Assembly: GCA_963693095.2 (NCBI GenBank)
Contig: OY843768.1
Coordinates: 192,001 to 256,000, forward strand
Length of the DNA stretch: 64,000 nucleotides
Source: Cenarchaeum sp.
GTDB lineage: Archaea; Thermoproteota; Nitrososphaeria; Nitrososphaerales; Nitrosopumilaceae
Direction of reading: 5' to 3'
Shown: piece by piece, positions 21,747-46,831 of the stretch
How the letters are laid out: the number at the start of each line of letters is the position of its first letter
Position numbering within the stretch: the first letter of the stretch is position 1
Program-made: the position numbers and the translations under genes
The notes under the pieces: generated by a model
Told to the model about the DNA's origin: nothing
Seen by the model: only the letters and a program-made list of their open reading frames with translations
The model's database searches: none

Positions 21747-22193
21747 GCAGTCATCCAAGATGTGCTTTCCGGACCACAAAATCCGCGGCAGGTCGGCGCG
21801 GGCGGAGCCCGCGCGGCGGAGTCGTGCCCCGTCACGTTTGCCGTCAGCGACCCCGGGGTCGACGTGGGGCGGTACGGCCTGCGCTGGGGAATCGGGTCGT
21901 GATCCGCGAGCTCGAGAGGGCACGCGTCCGGACGTCGTCCCGCAGGGTCGCAGCGCGCGCGATGTGCATGGGGCTCTCGCTGCTGGTCCTCAACGCGCGG
22001 GCCGAGGCCGGCGCGATGCTGGCCGCCGAGTCGTCGCAGGGGGTCGCCTCCGGGCTGCACATGCCGCACGCGGACTTTGCCCACGAGCTCACCAGCTGGC
22101 CTACGGGAGCCGACTGCGCCCGGAACCCCCGAGCAGATCCTGCCCCGGTACATCCAAGACGATTGTCACTGTGTGCGGCTATTGATTTGTTTA

Positions 22194-22925
22194 TCAGTTG
22201 TACGGCTGATTCTTTGATGATCCGTCCTTGGTTGTGTCGCCTTTGAGAATGCTGAGCACTTCGTGTAGTATCTTAACTGTGGCATCTTGTTTTTCTACCA
22301 GCAGTCGCATCAACCTGTTTGTGTCCTGTGTGAGGTAAAACATATTGGACTCGTGCCATAACTTGGCATGGACGTCTATGGTATTTAACACAATATCTAT
22401 GTTGGCCTCTGAGATTCCAGATTGCGAAAACATTGTGCGAATATTCGTTTCTGACCTTCCGCATGCACGATCATTAGAAAGTCTCATGTGTGCGCTGATA
22501 ATGTAGTTGATCTGCACACTTTTCAGTTTGTAGTGTTCGACCAACTCTTGTTTGTCCTTGCCGTCGATTATGTGGTCAGACACAATTTCCGGGTATTTGG
22601 CTCCAAAATCATTACCCAGTATTTGAACAACATTCTTTATCTGATAGCTTACTGTAGGCGCCTGCTCGATCATTTTATCGACAAGAAGTGTAGCATGCGT
22701 CCTGTCCATCCCGAGCTCGACTAGTCCGTCCATTATGTCCTGCTTGTCATACAATGACATATTGATGATTATGGATTGCAAAAGGGCATCCAACTTTTCT
22801 TGGTGAGGCTGCGTTAGGTTCACAGGATTGGTCAGTACGGTCACTTGTCCCTCACTGGAAAGCTTGGCGAAATATGCTATGGATTCTCGTATTTTTTCCT
22901 CTAGTGTGCTGTCAAATATGCTCAT
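22194..22925 (-). CDS. Hypothetical cargo protein (AT-rich)
   Basis: 243-aa ORF; ATGA overlap with the upstream ORF. Confidence 0.75.
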   Translation of the reverse strand: MSIFDSTLEEKIRESIAYFAKLSSEGQVTVLTNPVNLTQPHQEKLDALLQSIIINMSLYDKQDIMDGLVELGMDRTHATLLVDKMIEQAPTVSYQIKNVVQILGNDFGAKYPEIVSDHIIDGKDKQELVEHYKLKSVQINYIISAHMRLSNDRACGRSETNIRTMFSQSGISEANIDIVLNTIDVHAKLWHESNMFYLTQDTNRLMRLLVEKQDATVKILHEVLSILKGDTTKDGSSKNQPYN

Positions 22926-23179
22926 TCCTGCATCATCTCCTCCAGTTTGGCGAGCAATTTGTTAATTCTGGCAATTCGCAGGCGACGTCTAGTGTCCTCT
23001 GGCACCTGTTTGCGGCCTCTAACGCGTTGCCATTGCGCTGCATATGGCACGATGGTGCGGGTGTCATATTGTAGTGTCCATTGGTCTCCAAAGCGCCTCG
23101 TGCCCCAGAAATCTTGCTTGCTGCGCTCAAAAAACGTGCGATCCCACTCTGTAGCCTTGCGCCTGTCGTCCCAATCCAT
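22922..23179 (-). CDS. Small hypothetical cargo protein
   Basis: MDWDDRRKATEW...MMQE, 85 aa; TATTAA box upstream; coupled to 22194-22925. Confidence 0.6.
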   Translation of the reverse strand: MDWDDRRKATEWDRTFFERSKQDFWGTRRFGDQWTLQYDTRTIVPYAAQWQRVRGRKQVPEDTRRRLRIARINKLLAKLEEMMQE

Positions 23180-23575
23180 GGCGCCTTTGTGCCGGGGTGT
23201 GACATTAATACTTTGTCCGATATGTGGGCTTTTGCCGTGCGTAAATGGCAGGCTGGACGGGAACTGCCTGGTGGTGACACTGGTGTGCCCAGGCGGGCTC
23301 GCGATGGTAGGCAGGATGTTGCAGCGCGCGTTTGGGGAACCAGTGCCGGTGAGCCCTGTCGGCCGAGGCCGGCGCGATGCTGGCCGACGAGTCGTCATGG
23401 AAGGCCGCCTCCGGGCCGCATATGCCGCACGCGGACTTTGCCCACGAGATCAACCTGCTGGCCCATGGGGCCGGCCGCGCCCGGAGCCACGCCCGAGCCG
23501 ATCCTGCCCCAGCGCATCTGGGATGACTCTCTAGGGCACGATGCCTTATTTGGGGCGCGCCAGAGGCCGCAGGCC

Positions 23576-24370
23576 ATGACGCGCGTGGGAGTCGTGCAGA
23601 TGCGCGCCTCAACTGACAAGGTGGCCAACCTGGAGGGCATACTAGATGCGATCTCGCGTGCCGCCTCGATGCGCTGCGCGCTAGTGGCGTTTCCCGAGTA
23701 CATGATGTTCTATGTGGGCGCGCGCACGCCGCGCGAGGTTGCCAATGACGCCGAGGGGCTTGACGGCAACTTTGTCACGTCGATATCGCGCGTGGCGCGC
23801 GAGCGCAAAATCCATGTCATTGGGACGATATACGAAAAGAGCCGACTCGCCAACCGCGTGCATGACACGGCGTTTCATGTAAATTCGACCGGACGCCTTG
23901 CCGCAGCATACCAAAAGGCGCACCTCTATGACGCGCTGGGGACCAAAGAGTCGCGCATACTCTTGCGCGGCGACCGCTTTGCGCGACCACAGCCAACGCC
24001 GGCGGGCAGGACCGGGATGCTGATCTGCTATGACCTGCGCTTCCCCGAGGCCTCGCGCCGGCTCGCCCTGGACGGCTCGGACATGATAGTCGCGCCATCA
24101 GCCTGGGTTCGCGGGCCTGGAAAGGAGTCGCAATGGGTTGCGCTAAACCGCGCGCGCGCAATAGAGAACGGCTGCTATGTCATTGCGCCGGCGCACGTCG
24201 GAAACGCCTACTGCGGGAGGAGCCTTGCCGTTGACCCCTCCGGCAAGGTCCTCCTTGACATGAAAAAGCGACGCGGGATATCCACAGTCGACGTCTCGGC
24301 TGCAGTGGTGCGCCGCGTGCGCCGGGCAATGCCGCTACTTGCGAGCCGGCGAACCGACATGTACCGCTAG
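23576..24370 (+). CDS. Carbon-nitrogen hydrolase (nitrilase/Nit family)
   Basis: FPEY, YQKAHLYD, ICYDLRFPE triad, RAIENG. Confidence 0.92.
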   Translation: MTRVGVVQMRASTDKVANLEGILDAISRAASMRCALVAFPEYMMFYVGARTPREVANDAEGLDGNFVTSISRVARERKIHVIGTIYEKSRLANRVHDTAFHVNSTGRLAAAYQKAHLYDALGTKESRILLRGDRFARPQPTPAGRTGMLICYDLRFPEASRRLALDGSDMIVAPSAWVRGPGKESQWVALNRARAIENGCYVIAPAHVGNAYCGRSLAVDPSGKVLLDMKKRRGISTVDVSAAVVRRVRRAMPLLASRRTDMYR

Positions 24371-24843
24371 GGACTTGCGCGCGCGGGGCACTCGTGGTTT
24401 GTGCACATTCTGGTCCACTTTGCGGTTCGCGTATAGCGGTATATCGCCATGGGCCATGCGCACTCGGGGCACGCCTGCTTTAGGGCGCGCAGGCGCGCCC
24501 TCTGCGGCAGCGGCGAGGACGCGTCGCACCCGTTGAGATAGTTTGAGCACCCGATGAACCTCTTGCGCGTCCTGCGCGAGCGAACCAGCATGAGCATGCC
24601 CGTCCGGCACGAGGGGCACCTGACTAGCCCGCTGCGCGGCGAACGGGTTCCCAGGATCGTATAGACGCGCGCGCGGGCCGACCATGCGAGGTAGCCGCCG
24701 GTGTCAAGATACTCGTCGAGCTCAACCCTGAGCAGGCGCACGTCGCGCGCGCTGCTAGAGGCCGTGTGGCTTCCGGCGGGGCGCATTGCCACCACGCGCG
24801 CCGGTCCGGATGCCCGTCTTGCCATTGCCGCCCTCTCGGTCAC
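24367..24843 (-). CDS. Topoisomerase-type C4 zinc-finger protein
   Basis: CPSC..RFIGCSNY..C and CPEC..CTNHEC motifs. Confidence 0.8.
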   Translation of the reverse strand: MTERAAMARRASGPARVVAMRPAGSHTASSSARDVRLLRVELDEYLDTGGYLAWSARARVYTILGTRSPRSGLVRCPSCRTGMLMLVRSRRTRKRFIGCSNYLNGCDASSPLPQRARLRALKQACPECAWPMAIYRYTRTAKWTRMCTNHECPARASP

Positions 24844-24877
24844 GCGTTTTTATAGGGGCCCCAAGTCATCTTTCTTT

Positions 24878-26032
24878 GTGGAAAAGGTGTGTGTGCTGGG
24901 AGCCGGCAGCACGCGATATGGCAAGCTCGACGAAAGCCTCGTGGAGATGATAGTTGACTCGTCAGCCGGCGCCATGGGCGATGCGGGAATCGAGCCGCGC
25001 GAGATTGGCGCTGCCTACATATCCAACGTCTTTGGCATAGCCGACAAGCAGGTTCACCTCGGGCCAGTTATCATGAGCCGCCTTGGAATACCCGAGCGCC
25101 CGTCGCTGTCCATAGAGTCAGCATGCGGGAGCGGCTCGGTCTCGTTTCGCGAGGCATACGCCAATGTGGCAGCCGGTTTCTATGACGCGGTTCTCGTGAC
25201 TGGCGCAGAAAAGGTCACGCACACGGGCACGGCGTGGACCACGACCTACTTTGCCTACTGTTCGGACTTTTTCTACGAGGGCAGCGCCGGCGCGTCGTTT
25301 CCTGGACTCTTTGCGTCTATGGCCCGCGCGTACATGTCCGAATATGGGGCGACTGAGGAGGACTTTGCGCGCGTCGCAGTAAAGAACCACGACAATGGGA
25401 TACTCAACCCAAAGGCCCACCTGCGCAAAAAGATAAGCGTCGATGACGTTCTGGGCTCCGCAGTGGTCGCAAGCCCGCTAAAGCTGTATGACTGCTGCCC
25501 GTTCTCTGACGGCGCAAGCTCTGTCATACTCTGCAGCGAAAAGTTTGCAAGGGACCATGGCGGCAAGTACGTCGAGGTCGCCGGCTCTGGCCGCGGGGGC
25601 TCGCCGGCTGCGCTGCAGGACAGGGGGCACATGACTACGATCGACAGCACGCGCATAGCGTCTGAGGCGGCCTACAAGATGGCCGGCGTGAGGCCCTCTG
25701 ACATTGACTTTGCCGAGGTCCATGACTGCTTTACTATAGCCGAGGTCGTCAACAGCGAGGATCTCGGATTCTTTGAAAAGGGCAAGGGCGTAGAGGCCGC
25801 ACGCGACGGCAAGACGGCACGCGACGGCGAGATACCGCTAAACCCGTCTGGCGGCCTAAAGTCAAAGGGGCACCCCATTGGCGCCACTGGCGTGGGCCAG
25901 GTCGTCGAGGCATACGAGCAGCTAACCGGCGCTGCCGGCGAGCGCACGGTTTCTGGCGCCGAGGTTGGCCTGACACACAACTTTGGCGCAACGGGCGCAA
26001 GCTGCGCAGTCCACATATTCCGGAGCGTATGA
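24878..26032 (+). CDS. Thiolase (acetyl-CoA acetyltransferase, archaeal type)
   Basis: ESACGSG, EVHDCFT, NPSGGLKSKGHPIGATG. Confidence 0.92.
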   Translation: MEKVCVLGAGSTRYGKLDESLVEMIVDSSAGAMGDAGIEPREIGAAYISNVFGIADKQVHLGPVIMSRLGIPERPSLSIESACGSGSVSFREAYANVAAGFYDAVLVTGAEKVTHTGTAWTTTYFAYCSDFFYEGSAGASFPGLFASMARAYMSEYGATEEDFARVAVKNHDNGILNPKAHLRKKISVDDVLGSAVVASPLKLYDCCPFSDGASSVILCSEKFARDHGGKYVEVAGSGRGGSPAALQDRGHMTTIDSTRIASEAAYKMAGVRPSDIDFAEVHDCFTIAEVVNSEDLGFFEKGKGVEAARDGKTARDGEIPLNPSGGLKSKGHPIGATGVGQVVEAYEQLTGAAGERTVSGAEVGLTHNFGATGASCAVHIFRSV

Positions 26033-26400
26033 TCATGTCGACTAGGGGCGAGTTTTCAAGCAGCGCAAAATCCGGCAAGATTCTTGCCTCAAAGTGCCCA
26101 AAGTGCGGCACACTCCACCTTGCCATGTCGCTGTTCTGCTCAAAGTGCGGCGCGCGCGGGCTGGTGCCCGAGGAGGTTGCAGGGCGCGGAACTGTCGTGA
26201 CATACACCATAATCACCGTCGCCCCTGACGGATTTGAGGGCCACACGCCATACGCGTGGGTCGTCATGGCCATCGACGGCACGCCACTGCGCGTCTCGGG
26301 GTTTATGGCCGCCATCGCCACGCCGGCAGACCTTCCGGTGGGGACACGCGTGAAGATCGCCGGCCATGACGAGCGCGGCATACTCATAGAGCGCAGCTAG
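26029..26400 (+). CDS. DUF35 Zn-ribbon/OB-fold thiolase partner
   Basis: CPKCG..CSKCG, GTVVTYT, PY; overlaps the thiolase stop. Confidence 0.9.
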   Translation: MIMSTRGEFSSSAKSGKILASKCPKCGTLHLAMSLFCSKCGARGLVPEEVAGRGTVVTYTIITVAPDGFEGHTPYAWVVMAIDGTPLRVSGFMAAIATPADLPVGTRVKIAGHDERGILIERS

Positions 26401-26471
26401 AAACAATTTACGCGCATGCGCAACAAATTGCGATCCCACTGTTAATTACTCGCCACGTGCCACGCCTGCCC

Positions 26472-26639
26472 ATGTCAGTGGACATTGTCTGCGGCAAGTG
26501 CGGCAACCTCGTGCACAGGATGAGCATGCTAAAGCCCATCAAGGAGTCTGTGGCCGGAAAGAAAGAAACGTGCACCAAGTGCGGCAGCGTGCTCTCCACT
26601 AGCGAGTTCTCCGTTGACGCCCGCGAAATTGGCGAGTGA
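26472..26639 (+). CDS. Small Zn-ribbon protein
   Basis: CGKCG...CTKCG; TTAATTA box upstream. Confidence 0.7.
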   Translation: MSVDIVCGKCGNLVHRMSMLKPIKESVAGKKETCTKCGSVLSTSEFSVDAREIGE

Positions 26640-26941
26640 GCGCACGCTCGCTCCTCGGCCCGCCCATTCCGCGCGCTCGCAATCCTGCCACCGATGGGCC
26701 TTGATCGGCCCTGTCGCGGGAACCGGCTAGCCTGCCCCCGCCATGGACATTGTGGTGCCCAGGGGCTCCATGGTGCCGGCGTGTGCGGCAGGGGGTCATG
26801 GCGCGGCCATGGCGCCGAGCGTCGCCTGCCGTGCGCGAGCCGGGTCATGCCGTGCGCGCATGCGTTGCGGGAGGGCGGCGGCCCCATATGCCTGCCCCGC
26901 ATGGGCGCCATCGGCAAGACCTGCAGTCCGGTGCGGCGGCG

Positions 26942-27023
26942 CTGCGATCTAGATCGCACGCGACTCGATGATCCTGCGATCTAGATCGCACGCGACTCGA
27001 TGATCCTGCGATCTAGATCGCAG
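26942..27023. repeat. Tandem repeat, 32-bp unit x2.6, containing three copies of the 16-bp perfect palindrome TGCGATCTAGATCGCA
   Basis: Units ctgcgatctagatcgcacgcgactcgatgatc start at 26942, 26974 and 27006. Confidence 0.95.
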
Positions 27024-27239
27024 AATGTCGCCTCGCGCCGGATCCATGGCCGCACTGTGCGGCCCTCACGCCATAAACATTCCACGTTAGTGCTAAATAT
27101 GGCGCAAACCCTGAAAAATGTGGCGTGGAGCGCCCAAATTGTGCCAACGCTGATCGCCCAATGCCAAAAACTGCGATCACAAAAGCGCTCCGGGCACACT
27201 GCAAAAGTTTTATCTACAAGCCCTGTGCGCACGGTGCGC

Positions 27240-34432: not shown

Positions 34433-34516
34433 GACACACCGGCGAGTATGCGCGAGATATATTACCGATTGGGCGGATCCCGCGCGTGAGACCAGCATCC
34501 CACTGCCCACTTGTTC

Positions 34517-35625
34517 TATACTCACGAGCTAAAGTTCGTGTGACCTTCCACGACCTTCCTGTTCAGGTATGCGTAGATGTTCAGGTTGAACCGCTTGGTC
34601 CTGAGGTACTCGCCGACCGCGATCCTCAGCTCGTCCAGGGTTCGTGGTTGCCCCGGGACCCTGACGTCCCTCTTGAGTATGCGCCACGTCCCCTCGATGG
34701 CGCTTAGCTGCGGGGATCCCACCGGCAGCTCGATGAGCTTGATCTCGCCGTTGGCGCGCAGCAGGTTCTTGACCGCCCCCGCGCGGTGCTGGGGAGCCCT
34801 GTCGACGATGACGGCGATCTTGCCGAACTTCCCGTGCAGCTCCGCAAGGTACTGCGCGAACGTGTCCGCGTTGAACTTGTCGCGCGTCCGGAACGCCTGC
34901 CGCCCGTCCTCGGCGATCGCCCCGTACACGACGATCCGCTCGTGGCTCCCGGTGTACGGCTCGTAGACGGGCACCGTGCGCGGCGTCCAGTGCGTCGCCA
35001 TGCCCCCGGCGTCGTTCACGATGATCGACTCGTCCTGCACCAGCATCGTGTATCCCGCGCGCGCCAGGCGTGGCGCCGCCCCCGCAAGGCGCCGCTGCCA
35101 GCTGCGGACGGCGGACGCGCTCGCCCTGTTGACGTGGGCCTTTCGCGGCCTCTTGCGCGAGAGGCCGAACTCGCGCATGAGCCTCCTCACGCTGGCTATG
35201 TGGAACAGTGTCCCCGCCGCCCCGGCGATCCTGTCGCGGACCGCGGCCGGGGTCGTGGGGGATCCCGACGCGTCGGCGAGGATCCCGTCGAGCGCCGTTC
35301 GCGGCACGGCCAGCGGCCTCCCGGAGCGCGGGAGGTCGCGGAGGGCGGGAAGCCCGCCCTCCCGGTACCGCGCAACCCACTTGCCGACCCACCCCGGGCA
35401 CCGCATCAGCGTGTCCGCCGTGTCCTCGTGCGTCATGCCCATGTTGACCACGCAGTGCACGGCGAGCATCCTGTCCCTCACGTGCCCGCTCTTCTCGCTG
35501 TGGTGCGCGTCCCTCAGCTCCTCCCGCTTCCGGTCGTCCATGCCCTGGCGCGGGAGGGGGCGATCAATATAGCTGCGGGGTCGGGGAAACTTGATCATCT
35601 ATACGAACTTTAGCTCGTGAGTATA
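34517..35625 (-). mobile_element. Complete IS630-family insertion sequence
   Basis: 23-bp perfect inverted repeats TATACTCACGAGCTAAAGTTCGT (34517-34539 / 35603-35625) including the TA target. Confidence 0.93.
34522..35598 (-). CDS. IS630-family transposase (single ORF, DDE intact)
   Basis: HTH (W..RYREGG..L.D.PRSGRP), QDES, VDRAPQH, SPQLSAIE. Confidence 0.93.
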   Translation of the reverse strand: MIKFPRPRSYIDRPLPRQGMDDRKREELRDAHHSEKSGHVRDRMLAVHCVVNMGMTHEDTADTLMRCPGWVGKWVARYREGGLPALRDLPRSGRPLAVPRTALDGILADASGSPTTPAAVRDRIAGAAGTLFHIASVRRLMREFGLSRKRPRKAHVNRASASAVRSWQRRLAGAAPRLARAGYTMLVQDESIIVNDAGGMATHWTPRTVPVYEPYTGSHERIVVYGAIAEDGRQAFRTRDKFNADTFAQYLAELHGKFGKIAVIVDRAPQHRAGAVKNLLRANGEIKLIELPVGSPQLSAIEGTWRILKRDVRVPGQPRTLDELRIAVGEYLRTKRFNLNIYAYLNRKVVEGHTNFSS

Positions 35626-35922
35626 GGTGCGATCCTGCCGGTCTGCACCTGCCGAGTCGGCGCCTGTCTGGGCATGAGCGAGCCGTGGTGTTGAGCTCGT
35701 ACAGGGCACTGCCTGGCGTTGTTTCATAACCACGCTTAGGCGCCATCCGGCAGGCTCCGCGGCTCCGCTCCGCGCACGGCGCGCGGCTGCCACTACCGAA
35801 ACACAAATGGATCGGATCGCGCGGCTGCAACGCGTTGGCGAGCGACCGGAACGCAAAATACGTTGACAGGGATCGGGCGCAAGTAGCGGCTGAGCAACCG
35901 TGGCGAGTGGCTGCGGGACAAC

Positions 35923-36084
35923 GGCTACGGCCGGAGGTCGTCGGCAGAGACGGCGTTCTCCACGATCAAGCTGGTGTTCCGCGACCACGTGATGGCGCGG
36001 AACTGGGGCCAGGTGGTTCGCGAGCTGGTCTTCATGGCGTACGCGTACAACCGGCTGATCGACATGGCGGGCGATCCGTGGTGA
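35923..36084 (+). pseudogene. IS5-family transposase C-terminal remnant
   Basis: GYGRRSSAETAFSTIKLVFRDHVMARNW..VRELV..YAYNRL matches the IS5 Y-(2)-R-(3)-E-(6)-K signature. Confidence 0.82.
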
Positions 36085-36220
36085 GCCGCGGGAAGCGCGG
36101 CCTGTGGCGCCATGCGTGGCGCTCGTGGTCACTGGCTGTGAAACAACGTCCACCGGCGGCGCTCTTTATATGATGCCGAGCTGACAGTCGTGCGTGAGAT
36201 CTGCGATTGGGCTGCAGCAC

Positions 36221-38185
36221 ATGGCTAGGCTTGTGCCGGCCTTGGCCGCCGTGGCGGCCGCAATCGCCATGGCCGCCGCGCCTGCGGCGCTGGCGCAGCC
36301 CGGCGGCGCGCCGGGACTCGAGGCGCTCGTCGCCTGCGAGCCCAGGGGCACGCTCGTGGCGTTTATGGCGTCTAGCGAGCCCTACAGGATCGCCCTTCGC
36401 TCCGCCGGCGCCGCGGACGGCGAGGTGTCGTTCTCGCTCCGCGTGCTCCGGGTCGCGCACTGGACGGCGCAGGACGGCGACACGGGCGGCTCGCGGGTTG
36501 CCCTGGACGACCACGGGGCCGGCATGGCCACGGTCACCGTGGACAGGTCCGCCGCCGGCGAGCGCCTCGTGGAGATCACCGCGTCCGGCGCGCGCGGCGA
36601 GTCGCGGGCCGTGCACCTGCTGCGCATACTGCCCGCCTCCACGGCGGATCGGGACGCTGGCGCGCACAACTCCGAGCCCGAGCTCGAGGTGCTCCTCGGC
36701 GGCGTGCCGGTGCGGCGCGTGGACCTCGCCGAGTCGCCGGGGATCGCGTGCGTGGAGCTGAGGGCGCCGGACGCCGAGGGCGACGCGGTGGCCTTTTCGC
36801 TCAGGGTTCGGGAGACTGTGCCACTGGATCCCCTGGCAGGGGCGGGCATGCCGCCGGTGCTGGTAGACCACGGCGACGGGACGGCGACGGTCATGGTGGA
36901 CAGGTCTGCCGCCGGCGAGCGCCTCGTGGAGATCGCCGCCTCGGACATGCGCGGCGAGGGGTGGGACGCGTACGCGCTGGGCATGCTGTCCGCCGATGCC
37001 GGCGTCCGCCTCCTCCCGCGCGAGCAGCCCGTGCCCCAGTGGGACGCGTACGAGCTGCGCGTGCTCCCCGCCGATGCGGGCAGCCGGCCGCATGGCCACG
37101 CCGGCGGCCTCCCGCACGCCGTGGAGGGCAGGTCCACCGCCGGCGCCCCGCTGCCGCCGCGCCTCGTGGCCCAGGCGCACCGGCAGATGTGCCCGGACAC
37201 GCCGCACACGGCGGACACGTGGGGCGTGGACAGCCATCACCACAAGGACGTGCACAGGCTTGACTGGTCGGTGCGCCCCGCCATGTCCGGCGTGCCGCCG
37301 ATAGAGGGCACGTCAAAACAGAATGCCGGAATTTTTTACACTGATGGCAGAAACCCCTTTGACATCGGGGAGCGGAATTGGTGGGCGTGTCATACGCGAG
37401 CGTCGTTCGGGACTCAGGTGCCCCAGTGGGTAGTCCTGTGCGACGTGCCGGGCGATGACAGGACGCATTACTATATCCGAAATGACGCACCATCGGATTC
37501 GCCTCGTTCTCCAAAGTTGATAAACCCATACACGGGAAACATTGCGGATTTTGATAATAGCCCGCCCCGCACATATGCCGCAGCCCAGGAGCCACAATGG
37601 GTCAAATATAATAAAGATGATGTGCCCAAAAAGTCTGACATCTACAGGCAAATTCGCCCTGACGCGTACGTTCCTCCCAACCAACTGTTTGTAAAATCAG
37701 GGAATCATGCCATCTCCATTCACGCCTGGGTCGACGGCACATACTCCTCGGTGCCGGAGCTCCTCCCGTTCTCGGACAGGGTGGTGTTCCGGGCGACCGC
37801 ATTCCATGCGGATGACGTGACGTTCCACATAGTGGCGCTCAAGAGCATTCTCGGCGCGCCGGAGGGGAGGTCGCACGCGCTGGTAAACGGCATCCCGGCA
37901 CCGCTGAATACCGAGTCGATATGGCGATCCCCCGACGATGCGGAGATCCACGTTCCTGTCAGGGTGTCTGACATTGCGAAGGGCAACGGCATCTACATCA
38001 GGGGAATCAACGACGACGAGCGCACGGGTGACGGGGTGGTCAGGGATCTCCACGAGATAGAGCTCGTGGCCGAGATACCAGTCGTTGTGCCCGACAAGCA
38101 CAGGTATGAACCCATAGACCCAGCCTTTGCCATCGAGCCGTGGGGCTGCTGGCCGCTCCTCAACGGCACGGCCTGGGTCCCCTAG
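36221..38185 (+). CDS. Secreted protein with duplicated Ig/cadherin-like repeats (transposon cargo)
   Basis: Signal peptide MARLVPALAAVAAAIAMAAAPAALA; repeated DHG.G.ATV.VDRSAAGERLVEI; TTTATAT box upstream. Confidence 0.75.
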   Translation: MARLVPALAAVAAAIAMAAAPAALAQPGGAPGLEALVACEPRGTLVAFMASSEPYRIALRSAGAADGEVSFSLRVLRVAHWTAQDGDTGGSRVALDDHGAGMATVTVDRSAAGERLVEITASGARGESRAVHLLRILPASTADRDAGAHNSEPELEVLLGGVPVRRVDLAESPGIACVELRAPDAEGDAVAFSLRVRETVPLDPLAGAGMPPVLVDHGDGTATVMVDRSAAGERLVEIAASDMRGEGWDAYALGMLSADAGVRLLPREQPVPQWDAYELRVLPADAGSRPHGHAGGLPHAVEGRSTAGAPLPPRLVAQAHRQMCPDTPHTADTWGVDSHHHKDVHRLDWSVRPAMSGVPPIEGTSKQNAGIFYTDGRNPFDIGERNWWACHTRASFGTQVPQWVVLCDVPGDDRTHYYIRNDAPSDSPRSPKLINPYTGNIADFDNSPPRTYAAAQEPQWVKYNKDDVPKKSDIYRQIRPDAYVPPNQLFVKSGNHAISIHAWVDGTYSSVPELLPFSDRVVFRATAFHADDVTFHIVALKSILGAPEGRSHALVNGIPAPLNTESIWRSPDDAEIHVPVRVSDIAKGNGIYIRGINDDERTGDGVVRDLHEIELVAEIPVVVPDKHRYEPIDPAFAIEPWGCWPLLNGTAWVP

Positions 38186-38308
38186 GCCCCGGGGTGACGG
38201 GCATGCACGCGGCTCCGGTGCGCACCGGTTTGGATCGCACGATCACCGGTTATGAAACAACGCCCACTGCCTCATTGATTTATAACCCGCCGCGCGCGCG
38301 CAGCCCCG

Positions 38309-40061: not shown

Positions 40062-40994
40062 ATGGCCGCATTGGGAAGCGCACCGGCCGCATGGCTGGCT
40101 GACTGCATCGACTCTGGCGCACCGGCCGCGCTTGGGGGGTGCCGGTGCGGCAAGGAGAGCTTTGGGTGCTGCGAGTACAACGTGACTGTCTTTGACGGGG
40201 GTCATGGGGTCGAGGAGGCAAGCCATGACGGCCAGACGGTGATCATTCGGCACGACTCGGTGACTGACCCGTCATCGGGGACGTTTGCGCACCTGGCCGG
40301 AATGCGCGTCATCGCCGATCCCGAGTGGGAGATAGGGCCGCGCCTCTCGGCAATGGCGGCCAGGCGCGAGTGGGCGTTTCGCCACGCGATGAAGTCGGCC
40401 TTGGTGGATGCGGGAATGATGGCCACCAGGGCACGCGCGTCACTGGGGCGCCATCCCGCAACTGCGCCGTTCTGGCTAAAGTGCGCCGCGTACAGCCTTG
40501 CTGACTCGATATCATATGGCAACATGGTCGAGCCGGGTCCGGCGCACATGATGGCGCGATTTCGCGCAATGCCAAAGTCTGCGACCAACGAGGGCCTCTC
40601 GGCAGTCGGCGAGTGCCTCGGCCTCGAGCGCGCGACGCCCTCGCTTCTTGACAGGATGGCAAAGTCGGCAGCCGGCTTTGCCGGCATGGCAGGCCTCGGC
40701 GAGCTTGCGGTGGCCGCGATGCTCGCAAAGGCGCGCCACCTCGAGTCCGAATCGCTCCTTGCGGACTGTCACTATTACATCGGATATGCGACGTGCTCGG
40801 CCCTGCGCTCGCGCCGCGAGTATGCGCGCGCGCTGCCTGATGCCGAGCTCTATGCGCTAAAGGTCGCCCTGGATCCCGAGGGCAACGCGCAGCGCGTGGA
40901 GAGGCAGATCGGCATGGTCGAGTCGGCCGCCGCAGCGCTCATGGCGCGCGCCCGCGCCGATGCAGCTGAGGATCCAAATCCTGCGCACGCTTAA
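40062..40994 (+). CDS. Hypothetical protein (degenerate nucleotidyltransferase-like N-terminus)
   Basis: 310 aa; LGGCR..CCEYNVTVFD; TTTAAA box upstream. Confidence 0.7.
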   Translation: MAALGSAPAAWLADCIDSGAPAALGGCRCGKESFGCCEYNVTVFDGGHGVEEASHDGQTVIIRHDSVTDPSSGTFAHLAGMRVIADPEWEIGPRLSAMAARREWAFRHAMKSALVDAGMMATRARASLGRHPATAPFWLKCAAYSLADSISYGNMVEPGPAHMMARFRAMPKSATNEGLSAVGECLGLERATPSLLDRMAKSAAGFAGMAGLGELAVAAMLAKARHLESESLLADCHYYIGYATCSALRSRREYARALPDAELYALKVALDPEGNAQRVERQIGMVESAAAALMARARADAAEDPNPAHA

Positions 40995-41069
40995 CAATGT
41001 TTGAGATTTTCTTATTAACTATGGCCATGTTCTAAACCTTTAAAATCCAGCCCATTGCGCGGGGCGCGC

Positions 41070-41213
41070 ATGACGGATCAAGCCTGCGGCTGCGAGGCCG
41101 ATAGCGGAGACCCAGACTACCAGTGCGACTGCGAGATGCAGGGGCACTGCATATGCAGCGCGGACTGTGGCTGCAACACAAAGACCTGCAAGGAAGCAGT
41201 GTCCTCTCTCTAG
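41070..41213 (+). CDS. Metallothionein-like microprotein (47 aa, 9 Cys)
   Basis: MTDQACGCEADSGDPDYQCDCEMQGHCICSADCGCNTKTCKEAVSSL; TTTTAAAA box ~25 nt upstream; below the ORF-track cutoff. Confidence 0.75.
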   Translation: MTDQACGCEADSGDPDYQCDCEMQGHCICSADCGCNTKTCKEAVSSL

Positions 41214-41235
41214 GGGGCACGCTTCCACTTTTTGT

Positions 41236-41400
41236 CTATTCGTCAGGCGCATAGCCCCACGACTTTACTAGCTCCTTTTGGAACTGGTCTGCCTGCTTGG
41301 CGCCAAGCGCGCTTCCGCAGTTCTTGTGCGTGGGGACTACCACCATTCCGGCGAGCTTGAACTCGACTTCGTACATGTGGACCTTGGGGCACTCGCACAC
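41236..41400 (-). CDS. Small hypothetical protein (CxC...HxxC)
   Basis: GTG start, (M)CECPKVHMYEVEFK..PTHKNCG; shares AT-rich divergent promoter ATTAATATTTAAT. Confidence 0.6.
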   Translation of the reverse strand: MCECPKVHMYEVEFKLAGMVVVPTHKNCGSALGAKQADQFQKELVKSWGYAPDE

Positions 41401-41455
41401 GATGCGCGCGCGCAGGGCAGCTCCATTAATATTTAATCGCCCCCACGCCTGCCTC

Positions 41456-42937
41456 ATGGTGGCCATGAATGCAGTCCTCCTCGCCTCACTGGCGGCGATC
41501 GCCTCGCTGGCCGCAGCCGCCTCGATCCCCGATGCGGCCGCACAGGCCCAGATCGGAGGCGTGAGCGTCGAGGGCGAGTGGTACGTCGGCGAGGGCCTCG
41601 GCGTCGGGGACTATTTCTCGTATAGCATGTGCCACACGGGATACAAGGAGTGCAAGGAGTTTCAAATTGACTTTTGGATAGAGGCCGACAGGCGCGTGAA
41701 CAACGAGAGCAAGTGGATAGCGCAGACTGTCGTGTATGACGGGACCAGGGTGTCAAAGGGCACGATGGAGCTCGGCAAGGTGGCGCCCGAGCCGACGGGC
41801 GGCTCGATCGACCTAGAGTACCGCAGCGCGTTCAAGTCATCAATCGTGTGGCTCTCGGCGTTTGCGACATCATATGGCGGCAGCGGCGGCGAGGGCCCAA
41901 AGAGGTTCGACGCGCCGGCGTGGGGCAAGATTGCCAACATTGGCGGCGAGCAGATACTCCCAAAGTCAGTGGAGCGAGTAAAGGTCAAGGGCGGCACGTT
42001 TGAAGAGTCAGTCATCGTGTCATGGCGGACCGGCGGCGCCGAGAGCAGGGTCTGGCTAGTCGACGAGTTTCCGTTCCCCGTAAAGGCGCACACGTGGGTT
42101 CACGTGTCCGAGGGAATACCGCCACAAGAGTACGCCTTTGAGCTCCTGGAATACGGCACAAGAGATTCCAACCCATATGCTGACGTTCTTGCAGTCGACG
42201 ATGCGGCAGCAGCCGAGTGGTGCCCCGAGACGCGTGAGCTTGTGCCAACAAAGCGCGCAACTGCAGGGGGCAAGTATCTCATCAACGTGCTCCACGGGCC
42301 AGAGATGCCCGTGGCCGGATGCGACATGACGCTCCTTGTCAGCTTTCACAGCAAGTATGACGAGACCGAGTTCCTAAACCAGGTCCAGTATGACATACTC
42401 GTGACTGACTCGTCTGACAGTGTAATTCACACGGTCTCTGAGGCCGAGGGTTCGAGAATTCTGTTCTCGGGCTCGGGCCAGACGCGCAACGACGAGACGT
42501 GGGTGCCTAACACGGCCGGCGAGTACACGTACGCCATAGTCATCCATGGCCTCGCCCCGCTCAACACGGTCACGCGCGCCGACGAGCTAGACGTGCTTCG
42601 CGTGCCGGTGACCGTGGTCGCCGCCGATCGCGGGCAGGTGCTGCCAGTCACGCCGCCGGCCGCCGCGGCGACGGTCCCGTCGTGGATAAAGCAGACGGCC
42701 GGATTCTGGGTTGACGGGCACACCGGCGATGCCGAGTTCGTCGCGGCGATCGAGTTCCTCATCTCCCGCGGCGTCATTGACGTCGGCCCGCAGGGCACGC
42801 CGGCGGGCAGCGGCGGGTCGGTCCCGTCGTGGATAAAGCAGACGGCCGGATTCTGGGTTGGCGGGCACACCGGCGATGCCGAGTTCGTCGCGGCGATCGA
42901 GTTCCTCGTGGGCCGTGGGGTCATCTCGGTCAGCTAG
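41456..42937 (+). CDS. Secreted protein with two C-terminal thaumarchaeal PSWIK..AGFW repeats
   Basis: Signal peptide; VPSWIKQTAGFWV.GHTGDAEFVAAIEFL twice. Confidence 0.82.
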   Translation: MVAMNAVLLASLAAIASLAAAASIPDAAAQAQIGGVSVEGEWYVGEGLGVGDYFSYSMCHTGYKECKEFQIDFWIEADRRVNNESKWIAQTVVYDGTRVSKGTMELGKVAPEPTGGSIDLEYRSAFKSSIVWLSAFATSYGGSGGEGPKRFDAPAWGKIANIGGEQILPKSVERVKVKGGTFEESVIVSWRTGGAESRVWLVDEFPFPVKAHTWVHVSEGIPPQEYAFELLEYGTRDSNPYADVLAVDDAAAAEWCPETRELVPTKRATAGGKYLINVLHGPEMPVAGCDMTLLVSFHSKYDETEFLNQVQYDILVTDSSDSVIHTVSEAEGSRILFSGSGQTRNDETWVPNTAGEYTYAIVIHGLAPLNTVTRADELDVLRVPVTVVAADRGQVLPVTPPAAAATVPSWIKQTAGFWVDGHTGDAEFVAAIEFLISRGVIDVGPQGTPAGSGGSVPSWIKQTAGFWVGGHTGDAEFVAAIEFLVGRGVISVS

Positions 42938-42992
42938 CGCACGCGCGTGCCCGCGCTATCCTTAAAATCAGGAGCCTGCGCGCGAGACGCCG

Positions 42993-43349
42993 ATGGTGAG
43001 CCTCTTTAGATACCCAAAGCGCAAGCTGCGCAAGCTGCTCAACGCCGGCGACTATGCCGAGGCGCTAGAGTACGGCAGGTCACTGGAGCCAAAGCACTCT
43101 GGCGATCCGGACTTCTTGTTCATCATGGGCAGCGCGCACTATGTGCTCGGTGATGCCAAGGAGTCAACGCGCTACTTTGAGCGGGCCATCGAGATAAACC
43201 CGTACGATGCCGACTCTATGCTGCTCCTTGCGCGACTCTGTGCGCACGCCGGCAATGCCGCTGAGGCGCGCCGGCTCTGCAAGCGCGTATTGGACGTGGA
43301 TGACGAGCGCGCCGATGCGCGCGAGCTCCTCGACGGCCTGCCCGAGTAG
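42993..43349 (+). CDS. TPR-repeat protein
   Basis: YFERAIEINP and related TPR consensus. Confidence 0.85.
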   Translation: MVSLFRYPKRKLRKLLNAGDYAEALEYGRSLEPKHSGDPDFLFIMGSAHYVLGDAKESTRYFERAIEINPYDADSMLLLARLCAHAGNAAEARRLCKRVLDVDDERADARELLDGLPE

Positions 43350-43352
43350 GGC

Positions 43353-43823
43353 CTACTCGCGCCCATAGACGTGGCGCATGAGCCACTCACAGTACGACGT
43401 CACAGCCGGCGTGAGCTCACACCAGACGTGGAGCGAGTGCGGTAGTATGTCGATTCGGCCACCGTCATGGAACACCTTGACGCCCTCCTTTCCCTCGTAC
43501 ATGTACGCGTCCTCGGTCCGCGCCCCGTGTATGTGCCGCACGGCCTCCTCCTTTACCTTTGCGCGCGGTATGGGAAAGCGCGTCCTCTCCCTGTCCACAA
43601 TTACGCTCAGGTCGCGCCTTCCGTACATAGAGTACTCGGAGATCTTGTCGCGTCCGGGAAAGTTGACGACTAGCCTCACGCCGTGCCTCTTGCCCACACC
43701 CTCGCCAATCTCGACGATTCGGGCGTATGCCATGGCCGGATTGCGCAAGAGCAGGAGGCGAACCTGCGCCATGTCCGAGGCGAGGGCGCGCTGCAGGTCT
43801 GTGGCCATGCCGGCAAATCCCAT
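43353..43823 (-). CDS. Hypothetical protein
   Basis: Gene-like ORF (DAYMYEGKEG..RIDILPHSLHVWC). Confidence 0.7.
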   Translation of the reverse strand: MGFAGMATDLQRALASDMAQVRLLLLRNPAMAYARIVEIGEGVGKRHGVRLVVNFPGRDKISEYSMYGRRDLSVIVDRERTRFPIPRAKVKEEAVRHIHGARTEDAYMYEGKEGVKVFHDGGRIDILPHSLHVWCELTPAVTSYCEWLMRHVYGRE

Positions 43824-43901
43824 ACGCGCGCGCGTGCCGCACTGCCGAGTTATATTCATGGCGTAGTGTTTTTTATGTGCCCCGCGCACGCCGCAGCGCA
43901 G

Positions 43902-44543
43902 ATGGCGCTTCCTATGGCCGGTCAGGGCGGATATGGCGACGAGTTCTCCGAGCGCGCAAGCAGCCTAGAGGACTACAAGGTGACGTGCATACGGTTCGTG
44001 CGCGACATATCGACTGACTATCTTGCGTGGGTGGACCGCTATGCGCTAGAGTCCGCCGAGGACGCGCTCCGGCGCGAGGGCATAACGTCAGTTGTGGGCA
44101 GGGCCGATGAGTGGATATCGCGCGTTGCGCGCTCGATAAAGGGCGTCGACGTTGTCATGAACGACGCGATCCAAAAGATGGCCGAGGCCACTGCGGGCAG
44201 GCCGTTTCCCATAGACGTCACAGTCGGAGGACTCTCCGCATACACGCGCGCAAGGCCGGGTCCGGTGGACATACGCCTCAGGGCGAGTGCGCGAGACGGG
44301 CGCACGGCACTCCTGGGCCACCACTCGCGCGATGAGCGGTTTCGGATCGAGTCGACGTTTCCGGCCTCCATTGACGAGGGGGGCATCGAGGGGACGCCAG
44401 ATGCGGCAGACCTTGCGCTTCGCCTCGACGCGTCATCCTCGGCGCATGATGACGTCGTCTCCTTTACCGTCATTGTGCGAGAGACTGACGGCAATGTCGA
44501 GACAGAGAGGCGCGGCGTGAGCACCATAGTCCATATCAGCTAG
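43902..44543 (+). CDS. Hypothetical protein
   Basis: Gene-like ORF; TTTTAT box upstream; start uncertain. Confidence 0.65.
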   Translation: MALPMAGQGGYGDEFSERASSLEDYKVTCIRFVRDISTDYLAWVDRYALESAEDALRREGITSVVGRADEWISRVARSIKGVDVVMNDAIQKMAEATAGRPFPIDVTVGGLSAYTRARPGPVDIRLRASARDGRTALLGHHSRDERFRIESTFPASIDEGGIEGTPDAADLALRLDASSSAHDDVVSFTVIVRETDGNVETERRGVSTIVHIS

Positions 44544-44652
44544 TGCGGCCACGCGCCGGTCAAGTAATTTTGCGCACAAGGCTGAAAACAATAACACTCT
44601 TGCTCATAAGCGCACATTCGGATGCGTGCGCATGGCAGCAAGGCTGGCAGGC

Positions 44653-45084
44653 ATGCCCAAGAACGTGACGACCACGCGTGACTTTACCGGACGCCGCGTC
44701 GTTGACAGGGAGGGCATCGAGTACGGGCGCGTCAGGCGCGTCCACATCGACGAGGACACGCTCGGCGTGGCCGGCATGACGGTCAGCTATGGATTTCTCA
44801 AAAAATACTATCTCCCGCGCTCTAGCGTGTCGCGGATCACAGACGAGAGCGTCCTTCTCACGACCCCGCCGATCCGCACCGGAGTCAGGGTCGATGATGT
44901 CGACGGCCACAAGATTGGCCGCGTGCGCCGCGTCAACCGCAACACCGAGACTGGTGATGTCGAGTCGATCCTGGTGTCACATGGCATGTTTAGATCAAAG
45001 GTAGTATCGCTTGCCTCGATATGGGGCGTCGGCAAGGCCGTCACGCTAAAGATGACGCGCTCCGAGTTCGCCTCGCGCTCCTAG
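44653..45084 (+). CDS. Tandem PRC-barrel domain protein
   Basis: GRRVVDREG..YGRV and GVRVDDVDGHKIGRV. Confidence 0.85.
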   Translation: MPKNVTTTRDFTGRRVVDREGIEYGRVRRVHIDEDTLGVAGMTVSYGFLKKYYLPRSSVSRITDESVLLTTPPIRTGVRVDDVDGHKIGRVRRVNRNTETGDVESILVSHGMFRSKVVSLASIWGVGKAVTLKMTRSEFASRS

Positions 45085-45188
45085 CGCTCCCTTGCCCTTG
45101 CCTCTAGGCACGTGCGGCATATGGTCATCGCGCCATCCATGGTGACCTCGACGTTTGAGGCAAGGCACTTGTCGCACAGGCCCTTCAT
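45081..45188 (-). CDS. 35-aa zinc-finger microprotein
   Basis: MKGLCDKCLASNVEVTMDGAMTICRTCLEARARER; TTTTAT box ~25 nt upstream; CTAG stop overlap with the PRC gene. Confidence 0.65.
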   Translation of the reverse strand: MKGLCDKCLASNVEVTMDGAMTICRTCLEARARER

Positions 45189-45238
45189 GGGCGCGCGCGC
45201 GACCCTGCTGCGATAAAACGGTTTGTGGGGGCGCCCCG

Positions 45239-45566
45239 GTATGGGGTCAGCACCCCTCGGCTCATTTGGTCAAATAGGCGCGATCCTACCGATCCATTTG
45301 CCGCGGGGGGCGTGGCCAGGCTCCGCCGCACCGCGCCGCAGATGTTCGCGTTCTGCGAGCACGCCGGCGTCGCGCCCACGAACAACGCCGCCGAGAGGGA
45401 GCTGCGCGACGTGGTTGTGCGCCGCAAGGTGAGCGGCCAGCTCAAGGGGGGCGCGCCGGCTGCCAGGCGCATGTCTATCCTCCTGACGTGCTTCCTGACG
45501 TGGAGGGCCATTGGGAAGAGTGTGGTGGCCGAGGTCATGCGTGCGGTCTAGGTGCTGACCTCATAC
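45239..45566 (+). mobile_element. Internally deleted IS66 (ISBst12-like) with transposase C-terminal stub
   Basis: TIR GTATG(G/A)GGTCAGCACC at both ends; PTNNAAERELRDVVVRRKVSG is the IS66 transposase signature; stop codon abuts the right TIR. Confidence 0.88.
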
Positions 45567-45615
45567 CGCCATGCCCACGATATATTTATAAAAGCGGCAA
45601 GTCCCCAGGCTACTG

Positions 45616-45711
45616 ATGAGCGAGAGTGAGGCTGATGACAAGGTCAAGCCTACCAAGTCAAAGAAAAAGTACGAGGTTCCAGAATTTGGCGGCCTCATAC
45701 GCGACAATTGA
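45616..45711 (+). CDS. 31-aa leader peptide ORF
   Basis: MSESEADDKVKPTKSKKKYEVPEFGGLIRDN, directly after the TTTATAAA box. Confidence 0.45.
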   Translation: MSESEADDKVKPTKSKKKYEVPEFGGLIRDN

Positions 45712-45747
45712 GTCGGGATTTCCGCGGGGCGCTCCGGAGGTGCCCAG

Positions 45748-46317
45748 TTGAACTCCAGGAACGCCTATCATGAGCTAAGGGAGCAGATTCGCGACCACGA
45801 CACGGTTTTGGGTTATCAGAAGGCAAGGGCACGGGCGCTGCTCGGAGCCAGCGCCGTGCTTCTCGGGATTATGGGCATCAGCCTAGGCAACTTTGCCGGA
45901 TTTGTCCTTGGGAATTATGGTGTTGTGGGAGAGGCTGGAATGTTCCCAATTTATGCAATAGTCACCACAATTATGCTCGGCATGGCGGGACTTGCGGGGG
46001 CGATGATATCGATGATCTTTTCTGCGCGTGCGCTAGCTGTATCATACACACACCAGCCCATGGCGTCTGAAAATTTTGGAACAGGCGGCAACGTGGACGA
46101 CAAGATTTTAGATCGCGTGATGGAGGCGCCCGATCATTATGTATACGTGAGCCTAATCAAGTCTTGCATCAGGGCACTGCACAGCCGTGAGCAAAACATA
46201 GCCAGAGTCGGGGCGCGCTCGGCGGTGGCACAACTGAGCCTCCTGTCCGGACTGATGCTTGCCGGCATTGGCGCCATAGTTGCGCTCTCTGTGATTGCTC
46301 TGGCGTTCCTGCTCTAG
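45748..46317 (+). CDS. Hypothetical membrane protein (3 TM), cargo between IS66-derived elements
   Basis: Shine-Dalgarno GGAGGTG before TTG; hydrophobic helices; AT-richer DNA. Confidence 0.75.
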   Translation: MNSRNAYHELREQIRDHDTVLGYQKARARALLGASAVLLGIMGISLGNFAGFVLGNYGVVGEAGMFPIYAIVTTIMLGMAGLAGAMISMIFSARALAVSYTHQPMASENFGTGGNVDDKILDRVMEAPDHYVYVSLIKSCIRALHSREQNIARVGARSAVAQLSLLSGLMLAGIGAIVALSVIALAFLL

Positions 46318-46537
46318 GGAGCCCCGCGGGATCCGCGACCGCCGACCTTGCCGTCTCGTCACGTCTGTTCACCTGTGACCACCCAGTCCGTGGCAGTCAT
46401 GCCGTGCGAGCGTGCCACGACCGCCTCGGACACAGGATCGCTCCCCGCAGCCATCGCCCAATCGTTCTGCGCGCATTTCAGGCCGACTCTCAGGAAGCCA
46501 TTTTGGTCCCGGCCTCGCGCAGGTGACCAACCACCGG

Positions 46538-46650
46538 CTATGAGGTCAGCACCCTCCTGCTCATTTGGCCAAATAGGCGTGATCCTGTCGATCTACGTGC
46601 CGCTTCGGCACCTGTCTAGGCATGAACGGGCAGAGGTGCTGACCTCATAC
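46538..46650 (+). mobile_element. Intact ~113-bp IS66-derived MITE
   Basis: TATGAGGTCAGCACC...GGTGCTGACCTCATA perfect 15-bp TIR; left interior matches 45239-45300. Confidence 0.9.
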
Positions 46651-46831
46651 GGCGCCCTGCAGTCGCGTGTGGGCTCACCGGCCGGTGGGGTCACGCCATC
46701 AGGCGATTCGAACCACGTGGCCTTGCAGGGCTGTCTCGGGGCACGAGGGGAACCCTTGGGGAGTCTAGGGCACATGTTAGACTGCCGATGAGCACAATCG
46801 GTTTATAATCACGCAATGCGCGCGCACGCCC

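Follow-up and report, generated by a model that had tools for sequence, protein, structure and literature searches.

Can an insertion sequence (IS) that has lost its transposase gene still carry other genes to new places in an archaeal genome? The question is raised by three units lying within 25 kb of one another in a 64,000-nucleotide stretch of a Cenarchaeum sp. genome (the whole stretch is called the window below; it covers C1:192001-256000 of G000, an assembly of 2.0 Mb in two contigs with 60% GC). The host is an ammonia-oxidising archaeon, as a sequence-only reading of the window had supposed: there is a gene for an archaeal AmoA in the genome and one for ribosomal protein S19e in the window. 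The same reading had described three defective IS of different families, each enclosing accessory genes, and direct inspection of the sequence finds them where it had placed them: an ISH3-like unit at 21748-23530 (unit B), an IS5-like unit at 35715-38264 (unit A), and an IS66-like unit at 45239-46650 (unit C). All three have the layout that it had recognized, in which terminal inverted repeats enclose, in order, a C-terminal transposase remnant, an inner right end, one or two passenger genes, and the outer right end.

A functional transposase gene is missing inside all three units, which hold C-terminal remnants only (65 amino acids [aa] in unit A, a frameshifted piece in unit B, and about 80 aa in unit C). 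The passenger open reading frames (ORFs), of 654 aa in unit A, 243 and 158 aa in unit B, and 31 and 189 aa in unit C, are all open. None of the encoded cargo proteins matches a transposition family, or gives a usable match that points to a function, in Pfam, NCBIfam, PADLOC, or PHROGs (for the 31-aa ORF of unit C, in PADLOC and PHROGs), and there is no usable protein-atlas match for the cargo of unit A or the first cargo gene of unit B. Against a background of about 60%, the measured GC content of the cargo is 74-77% falling to 55-59% in unit A, 43-45% in unit B, and 52-55% in unit C, which agrees with the AT-richer or mosaic composition first ascribed to it. As detailed below, each unit was inserted as one mobile unit relative to a sister genome, and each is probably a non-autonomous transposon with a passenger, moved by a transposase made elsewhere.

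Empty sites in related genomes

The sister genome (G004), a complete genome of the same genus in one contig of 1.64 Mb, is collinear with the whole window, and the blocks around the units are 93-97% identical. The alignment of the two is interrupted by 1781 bases in the window versus -7 in the sister genome at unit B, by 3746 versus 81 at unit A together with a neighbouring IS630-family copy, and by 1458 versus 59 at unit C. Read base by base, the sister genome has one CACTGCCT, one CTCTAGG, and one GGCGCCTG, each with the same flanking sequence on either side as the corresponding unit (...gacactgcctcattga... at the site of unit A, ...cgcctctagggcacg... at that of unit B, and ...gggggcgcctgcag... 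at that of unit C). The alignment with a sister genome that had been suggested as a check thus returns a single target copy and no unit at 3 of 3 places, and the contrary outcome (cargo retained without IS ends, and no empty site) was not seen in the genomes compared. Among the more distant congeners (G001, G002, and G003, which serve as outgroups and were assessed by coordinates), the picture is the same: units A and C are absent in all four congeners, the sister genome included, and unit B is absent in both of the informative ones (G003 and G004), its flanks lying on two contigs in G002 and G001 having no usable flanks.

From the clean empty sites in the sister genome, each unit was inserted as a whole. 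The reverse history, in which the genus had the units from the start and the sister genome and the other congeners lost them by precise excision, is highly improbable. Cut-and-paste elements can excise, and the sister lineage does co-occur in the same public sequencing runs, but loss would have had to leave no footprint at three sites in the sister genome and to do so again in the outgroups. Excision by DDE transposases usually leaves the duplication or a footprint behind.

Four of these public runs contain contigs that lack a unit and join its two flanks, at 21740->23529 for unit B (7 letters fit both sides) and at 35706->38265 for unit A (8 letters fit both sides). Other contigs from the same runs span the units without any difference, and the divergence from the window is about 3% for the majority of contigs in the runs. 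A further joint, 23516->34515, has short sides and was set aside as probably repeat-driven.

Ends, remnants, and passengers of the units

Unit A has terminal inverted repeats (GGCGTTGTTTCATAACC) that agree at 17 of 17 positions between its left end (35715-35731) and its outer right end (38248-38264), and these are enclosed by a perfect 8-bp duplication of the target CACTGCCT at 35707-35714 and 38265-38272, both read in the sequence and compared with the sister genome. Its first 436 bp (35715-36150, plus strand) are an IS5-family shell, an internal-deletion derivative of a 1286-bp IS on contig C2 in which about 157 bp of the left side are fused to about 280 bp of the right side. Within the shell, a 65-aa open frame (35887-36084) has, by eye, the Y-x2-R-x3-E-x6-K spacing found at the end of a DDE_Tnp_1 transposase, with a score of 18 bits, below the cut-off, against that Pfam profile. 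The inner right end, at 36134-36150, matches at 14 of 17 positions and is decayed as first described, the outer end being a perfect match to the left one. The outer right-end fragment comprises 78 bp (38187-38264, plus strand) and is 88% identical to a solo end at C1 716288-716365, whereas the inner right end falls in a group with the copies at 1038 kb and 321 kb, apart from the outer one. The two right ends belong to different IS5 sub-lineages, which argues that unit A was built from two IS-derived pieces and not by duplication in place.

The cargo of unit A (36221-38185, plus strand) is a single-copy gene for a 654-aa protein with two internal repeats of about 119 aa and an N-terminal hydrophobic leader, read as a signal peptide by eye and not by a prediction tool; its GC content drops from about 76% to about 56% along its length. 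Only 6 homologs, with 48-66% identity, exist among 5.8 billion proteins. No IS5-type ends lie close by the homologs in G004 (three genes), G001, and G002, and an exact-match scan of metagenomes for the junction between the cargo and the outer end gave 0 matches.

Unit B extends from 21748 to 23528 or 23530. Its left 18-mer (CAGTCATCCAAGATGTGCT) and its outer right 18-mer agree at 16 of 18 positions and, with up to 3 mismatches allowed, these two ends are the only such sites in the whole genome. The 7-bp sequence CTCTAGG, which occurs once at the site in the sister genome, stands on both sides (21741-21747, where it takes in the TAG stop of the upstream tautomerase gene, and 23529-23535). The left tip of the unit reads CAGT, and the flank repeat amounts to 5-7 bp. 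The last 170 bp or so of the IS are present twice, at 22000-22172 and 23361-23530, with 84% identity. The first copy closes the shell (21748-22172, plus strand), and the second forms the outer right-end segment (23361-23528, plus strand; terminal repeat at 23511-23528). In the inner copy, the terminal repeat at the tip is gone and no likeness to the left end remains, so that here too the inner end is the more decayed one, as had been claimed. Between the left repeat and this inner end lies a frameshifted transposase C terminus (about 21860-22160), which has no match in Pfam, NCBIfam, or PHROGs but shares 32% identity over 77 aa (E=4e-7, pairwise) with the C terminus of an ISH3-type transposase from the same genome. 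Because of this likeness and the CAGT tip, we tentatively label the unit ISH3-like, an assignment that is weakly established.

The first cargo gene of unit B (22194-22925, minus strand; 243 aa) has homologs in 7 other genomes among 301 of the order, six with 27-32% and one with 18% identity. Its AlphaFold model is all-alpha (predicted local distance difference test score of 80.9, from a 6-sequence alignment), with no match in the PDB at E<=0.001 by Foldseek. The second (22922-23398, minus strand) is a 158-aa ORF whose conserved part is the last 114 aa or so and whose upstream end enters the outer right-end repeat; a paralog with 55% amino acid identity adjoins a remnant of the first cargo gene at C1 ~515.4 kb, in a region that has no counterpart in the sister genome. 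Just upstream of the unit B site, at about 21390-21443, there is also an element of about 55 bp that has some 20 copies in the sister genome (80-92% identity), and a similar piece lies beside the paralog at 515 kb; it is probably another miniature repeat family.

In unit C, the left and outer right ends agree at 15 of 16 positions, and the flanks GGCGCCCCG (45230-45238) and GGCGCCCTG (46651-46659) match at 8 of 9, as first reported. The shell (45239-45566, plus strand) is a 328-bp internal-deletion derivative of a 1516-bp IS66-family IS, its left 71 bp being 92% and its right 264 bp 96% identical to intact copies, and it retains a transposase remnant of about 80 aa (Pfam DDE_Tnp_IS66, 29.9 bits versus a cut-off of 23.1). 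Its inner right end (45551-45566) is not decayed and matches the consensus perfectly, at 16 of 16 positions. The outer end of the unit is provided by a complete 113-bp IS66-type MITE (miniature inverted-repeat transposable element; 46538-46650, plus strand) with a left end of its own, whose first base is C and not G, and the unit therefore carries an extra internal left end beyond the layout first described. Unit C is thus a composite of two miniature elements. Elsewhere in the genome, paired copies of such MITEs, each about 110 bp long, are present at some 15 sites.

Between the two elements, the cargo of unit C (45567-46537, plus strand) consists of a promoter-like TTTATAA box, the 31-aa ORF (45616-45711), a gene whose predicted product is a membrane protein of 189 aa (45748-46317), and a spacer of 220 bp. 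The membrane protein has as its best library match a PHROGs entry of unknown function (E=0.0017). Paralogs with 60-64% amino acid identity lie at C1 ~1016.4 kb and ~1037.3 kb, and the unit C junction of an IS66 end with the cassette promoter ("IS66 end | cgCCATGcCC...TATTTATAA") is found again, to within 0-2 bp, at a paralogous cassette at ~1037.8 kb and at the counterpart of that cassette in the sister genome, at ~841.4 kb. The recurring junction means that this cassette family and the IS66 ends share a history. Upstream of a paralogous membrane-protein gene, at C1 ~1015.7-1016.2 kb, the promoter and small-ORF module that heads the cassette is present as three tandem repeats.

The three units had been said to have the same architecture. 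The layout is indeed common to them, but the differences are better read as stages in the decay of a composite: unit C has two elements, the 328-bp derivative and the 113-bp MITE, with both ends each, and units A and B have a right-end fragment as their second element, of 78 bp and about 170 bp, respectively. The most likely origin of the units is as composites in which a gene came to lie between two IS derivatives in direct orientation. Of such a pair, the outermost ends would keep working as the inner ends and the transposase genes decayed; unit C would still retain both elements, and units A and B only the right tip of the second.

The order of left end, inner right end, cargo, and outer end is also the product of one-ended mobilisation of adjacent genes, for which ISEcp1-type elements are known and in which the transposase passes over the right end of its own IS and takes instead a chance look-alike downstream. 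That such read-through produced the three units is hardly probable. True IS sequence makes up their outer ends, with 78 bp in unit A, about 170 bp in unit B, and a whole MITE of 113 bp in unit C; the agreement of these outer ends with the left end exceeds that of the inner ends, and there is no transposase gene inside. The empty sites in the sister genome also contradict the idea that the outer ends are ordinary host sequence in relatives. The resemblance to ISEcp1-type elements lies in the order of left end, own right end, cargo, and alternative right end, and the difference lies in the alternative ends, which here are true IS ends with extended homology (78-170 bp), and in the missing transposase.

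To ask how often flanking matches like these arise in the genome, we compared the units with other pairs of ends. All four copies of the 1515-1516-bp IS66-type IS have a perfect 8-bp duplication, a length typical of the IS66 family. Among 41 pairs of IS66-type ends up to 8 kb apart, only the four full copies and one MITE have flanks that agree at 7 or more of 8 positions in register; for 9-bp flanks, only unit C (8 of 9) and one MITE (9 of 9) stand out, and 0 of 1980 noncognate combinations of IS66-type ends in the genome reach 8 of 9. Taken singly, the two sub-elements of unit C lack a duplication, their flanks agreeing at 1 of 8 bases for the 328-bp element and at 3 of 8 for the MITE. Among the three IS5-type pairs, the full IS and unit A both match at 8 of 8 positions and the 436-bp sub-element at 5 of 8, and at this base composition, an 8-of-8 match for unit A would arise by chance about 3 times in 100,000 (arithmetic).

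These controls bear on the idea that the units were assembled in place, with a short derivative or MITE arriving first, the cargo and the second end following later by separate insertions or by illegitimate recombination, and the match of the flanks being a coincidence. IS66-type ends are indeed dense and clustered (91 matches to the 16-mer at 3 or fewer mismatches), and there are nested insertions beside unit A. However, the duplications belong to the outermost ends and not to the sub-elements, at 3 of 3 sites the flanks adjoin directly in the sister genome across one copy of the target, none of the control combinations equals the flank match of unit C, and the match of unit A would seldom arise by chance, all of which makes assembly in place very unlikely.

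Source of the transposase

A search of the genome for the ends of the units, also suggested by the sequence-only reading, was expected to return autonomous partners and paired ends with different cargo. Partners were found for the IS66-like and IS5-like shells, so that intact cognate IS exist for two of the three families; none was found for unit B, and among the IS66-type and IS5-type end pairs within 8 kb of each other there was none with other cargo and a target duplication. The IS66-type IS is present in four copies, and the one that we read encodes an intact 472-aa transposase (NCBIfam transpos_IS66, 229 bits versus a cut-off of 180; Pfam DDE_Tnp_IS66, E=1e-38). The IS5-type IS is present on C2 in one complete copy of 1286 bp, with a 379-aa DDE_Tnp_1 transposase (Pfam, 47.6 bits; cut-off, 23), ends that match those of unit A at 16-17 of 17 positions, and an 8-bp duplication, CTGCCTCT.

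In its surroundings (C2 25995-27705), this full IS is followed by its 8-bp target copy and then by a second left end that runs up to the end of the contig, an arrangement that could reflect either a dimer of the IS in tandem or a loop in the assembly. Elsewhere, at C1 ~779.5-786.7 kb, there is a tandem array of about six units of ~1193 bp, 85-89% alike, each with an IS66-type remnant that includes the right end and, on the other strand, an ORF of ~186 aa whose family is unknown; the array may represent a further association of an IS66 derivative with a small gene, amplified in tandem.

The nearest relative of unit B is a 1305-bp ISH3-type IS with a 433-aa transposase, two copies in the genome, CAGT tips, and 5-bp duplications. 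Its best NCBIfam match is ISH3, with 123 bits, below the cut-off of 225. The passage of PMC2266710 that describes the ISH3 family gives ends of CRGT, a duplication of 4-5 bp, a length of 1225-1500 bp, and a Y-x2-R-x3-E motif, and the 1305-bp IS fits this description in its ends, size, and 5-bp duplication. Beyond the genome, a search of the 301 genomes of the order with the DNA of the unit B shell gave matches of 51 bp at most, and a protein search with the 87-aa remnant of unit B for longer proteins gave none among 415 candidates. A degenerate form of the unit B 18-mer has 66 single matches in metagenomes, none of which extends beyond 24 bp, and these were discarded as chance matches.

We consider it probable, then, that each unit is a non-autonomous transposon moved by a transposase made elsewhere, and the steps would be as follows. 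One or two accessory genes lie between the left end of an internally deleted IS and an outer right end from the same IS family. A DDE transposase produced elsewhere in the cell would pair the two outermost ends and move all that lies between them, and insertion at a staggered cut, followed by repair, would give rise to the target duplication of 8 bp in the IS5-like, 9 bp in the IS66-like, and 5-7 bp in the ISH3-like unit. The inner right end would be bypassed; it has decayed in units A and B, and in unit C, where it is intact, it would merely compete. The ends, the duplications, and insertion as whole units relative to the sister genome are shown directly by the sequences, and the provision of transposase in trans when the units moved, the choice of the outermost ends, and the composite origin are inferred. 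In favour of such a provision, perfect duplications flank two of the paired IS66-type MITEs of about 110 bp themselves (ACTGATTT, 8 bp, and TATGGGCAG, 9 bp), which makes action in trans plausible in this lineage.

Alternatively, the units may have been autonomous when they were inserted, as composite or passenger-carrying transposons with an intact transposase gene in the left IS, most of which was later lost by internal deletion in place; IS ends would still have moved the cargo, but in cis, and the idea of a transposase-less shuttle would be wrong. No other copy of the 436-bp or 328-bp junction exists in the genome or in the loci compared in the sister genome, and nothing dates the deletions to before the insertions; IS66 derivatives with other junctions (284, 270, and 493 bp) show that such deletions are frequent in this genome, and the remnant in unit A is still an open, undamaged frame. 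On the other hand, three independent deletions after insertion would be needed, each sparing both ends and the cargo; the two MITEs with their own duplications indicate that mobilisation in trans occurs in this lineage; and the remnant of unit B is frameshifted and invisible to profiles, yet its target duplication is still perfect. We regard movement in cis as unlikely but worth keeping in view.

Several further observations weigh against movement in trans by the transposases named above. The deletion junctions of the 436-bp shell of unit A and the 328-bp shell of unit C are unique in the genome and in the sister-genome loci compared, so that the transposase genes were possibly lost after insertion. 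The duplication at unit C is 9 bp long with one mismatch, versus 8 bp in the four intact IS66 copies. The predicted 379-aa transposase that would serve unit A has IS5 as its best NCBIfam family, at 117 bits, below the cut-off of 140, and contains a nine-fold GGNAD repeat. For unit B, no cognate transposase was found in the genome, and the ends of the 1305-bp IS agree with those of the unit at only about 10 of 19 positions (by eye). Given the divergence of about 3% from the window in most contigs of the public runs, those that bridge the empty sites probably stem from the sister lineage and not from polymorphism within the strain, and add no independent evidence. Finally, every unit is single-copy, with no second copy of unit A or unit C in the genome and the ends of unit B found nowhere else in it, and the genome-wide scan of end pairs found no shell with another cargo.

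The last point bears on the broadest of the earlier claims, that this archaeon repeatedly uses transposase-less shells to shuttle small gene cassettes. Among the 41 IS66-type and 3 IS5-type end pairs within 8 kb, there is no further cargo-bearing pair with a target duplication, and with single-copy units and no second cargo in any shell, repeated use is not borne out; to speak of a habitual shuttle system goes beyond the evidence. For the three units themselves, movement in trans as non-autonomous transposons is still the reading that we prefer.

Other features of the window set the units in their surroundings. The neighbour of unit A is an IS630-family IS (34517-35625, minus strand), which encodes a transposase of 358 aa, has perfect inverted repeats of 24 bp, and has TA as its target. 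It is nested in an older IS66-type MITE (~34484-34516 and 35627-35702), 4 bp from the target of unit A. Seven more copies, at 100% identity (rounded), are present in the genome, and the element is absent from the sister genome, where the MITE is unbroken; it looks like a recent burst. At 12416-13693 lies a second block that is not collinear with the sister genome (1278 bp, versus 2134 bp there), and at 61613-62381 a genome-specific segment of 769 bp stands in place of 83 bp of the sister genome, with no inverted repeats or duplication seen. The 180-aa ORF in this segment belongs to a family of which the genome contains 25 or more diverged copies, many of them at C1 14-45 kb and near a MITE cluster at 1658-1666 kb. 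Lastly, an exact 32-bp tandem duplication (26942-26973 and 26974-27005, within 26942-27026) with palindromic CTGCGATCTAGATCGCA motifs is found at the start of a 774-aa ORF.

Related systems and meaning for ammonia-oxidising archaea

Elements of this kind are known in bacteria. Mobile insertion cassettes, exemplified by MIC231 of Bacillus cereus, which is reportedly moved by the transposase of IS231A (work credited to Chen et al. 1999 and De Palmenaer et al. 2004), have IS-type inverted repeats around passenger genes, no transposase gene, and a target duplication, and they depend on a transposase in trans, as the units would. Unlike them, the units are archaeal, derive from three other IS families, retain a remnant and a redundant inner right end, are single-copy, and are known as sequences and not from experiment. 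The papers on mobile insertion cassettes are cited in PMC2266710 and PMC6542083.

A second parallel is offered by the TIME-COMP elements of Pseudomonas, which are composite-like and bounded by miniature elements (PMC4133298, PMC13367494), and by the MITE-flanked integrons of Acinetobacter (PMC10969869). In these, two non-autonomous derivatives of one family flank unrelated DNA and carry it along in one piece, within a single target duplication, which is exactly the arrangement of unit C; in units A and B, by contrast, the second element is a right-end fragment only. The bacterial composites also differ from the units in involving Tn3 or other families, in being often plasmid-borne, and in carrying resistance or replication modules. 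With the composite transposons Tn5 and Tn10, the units have in common that the outermost ends of two IS-derived elements work together and that the inner ends are dispensable, but in the units neither flanking element encodes a transposase.

In archaea, the closest precedent that we found is a survey of IS-like transposons in Thaumarchaeota, the same phylum, which reports 13 IS families, most with DDE transposases, and elements of one or two genes (PMC6563490). Unlike the units, those elements include the transposase. The discussion in that paper states that composite transposons with passenger genes were not detected in archaea, and a term search of a 2026 survey of archaeal IS (PMC13343696) did not find the words "passenger" or "composite" in the text searched. 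A limited literature search found no archaeal description of such passenger cassettes, which, together with the statement in the discussion of PMC6563490, fits the earlier suggestion that this mode is undescribed for ammonia-oxidising archaea. As far as checked, it is therefore the occurrence in an archaeon, and in three IS families within 25 kb, that is new, and the kind of element is not. Since the mechanism is ordinary for bacteria, the surprise is a modest one.

The widest interpretation would hold that these are the first documented passenger-carrying, transposase-less IS cassettes in Archaea; that the order of left end, remnant, dead right end, cargo, and live right end, on which three unrelated IS families converge in one genome, marks a general route of gene capture by recruitment of a second right end; and that secreted and membrane proteins specific to a lineage are exchanged in this way between co-resident strains of symbiotic ammonia oxidisers by means of the transposases of active IS. 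Taken together, these propositions are speculative, and we put them forward as a doubtful but conceivable extension.

What the units mean for these organisms can be stated more narrowly. In an ammonia-oxidising archaeon that carries amoA, IS ends move genes other than those for transposases, which provides a concrete route by which strain-specific orphan genes of these genomes, such as the cargo of unit A, may be acquired. Annotation of IS from transposase genes alone overlooks such traffic. The natural pairs of ends, together with the candidate transposases, are also possible genetic tools for a group in which transposon mutagenesis is lacking.

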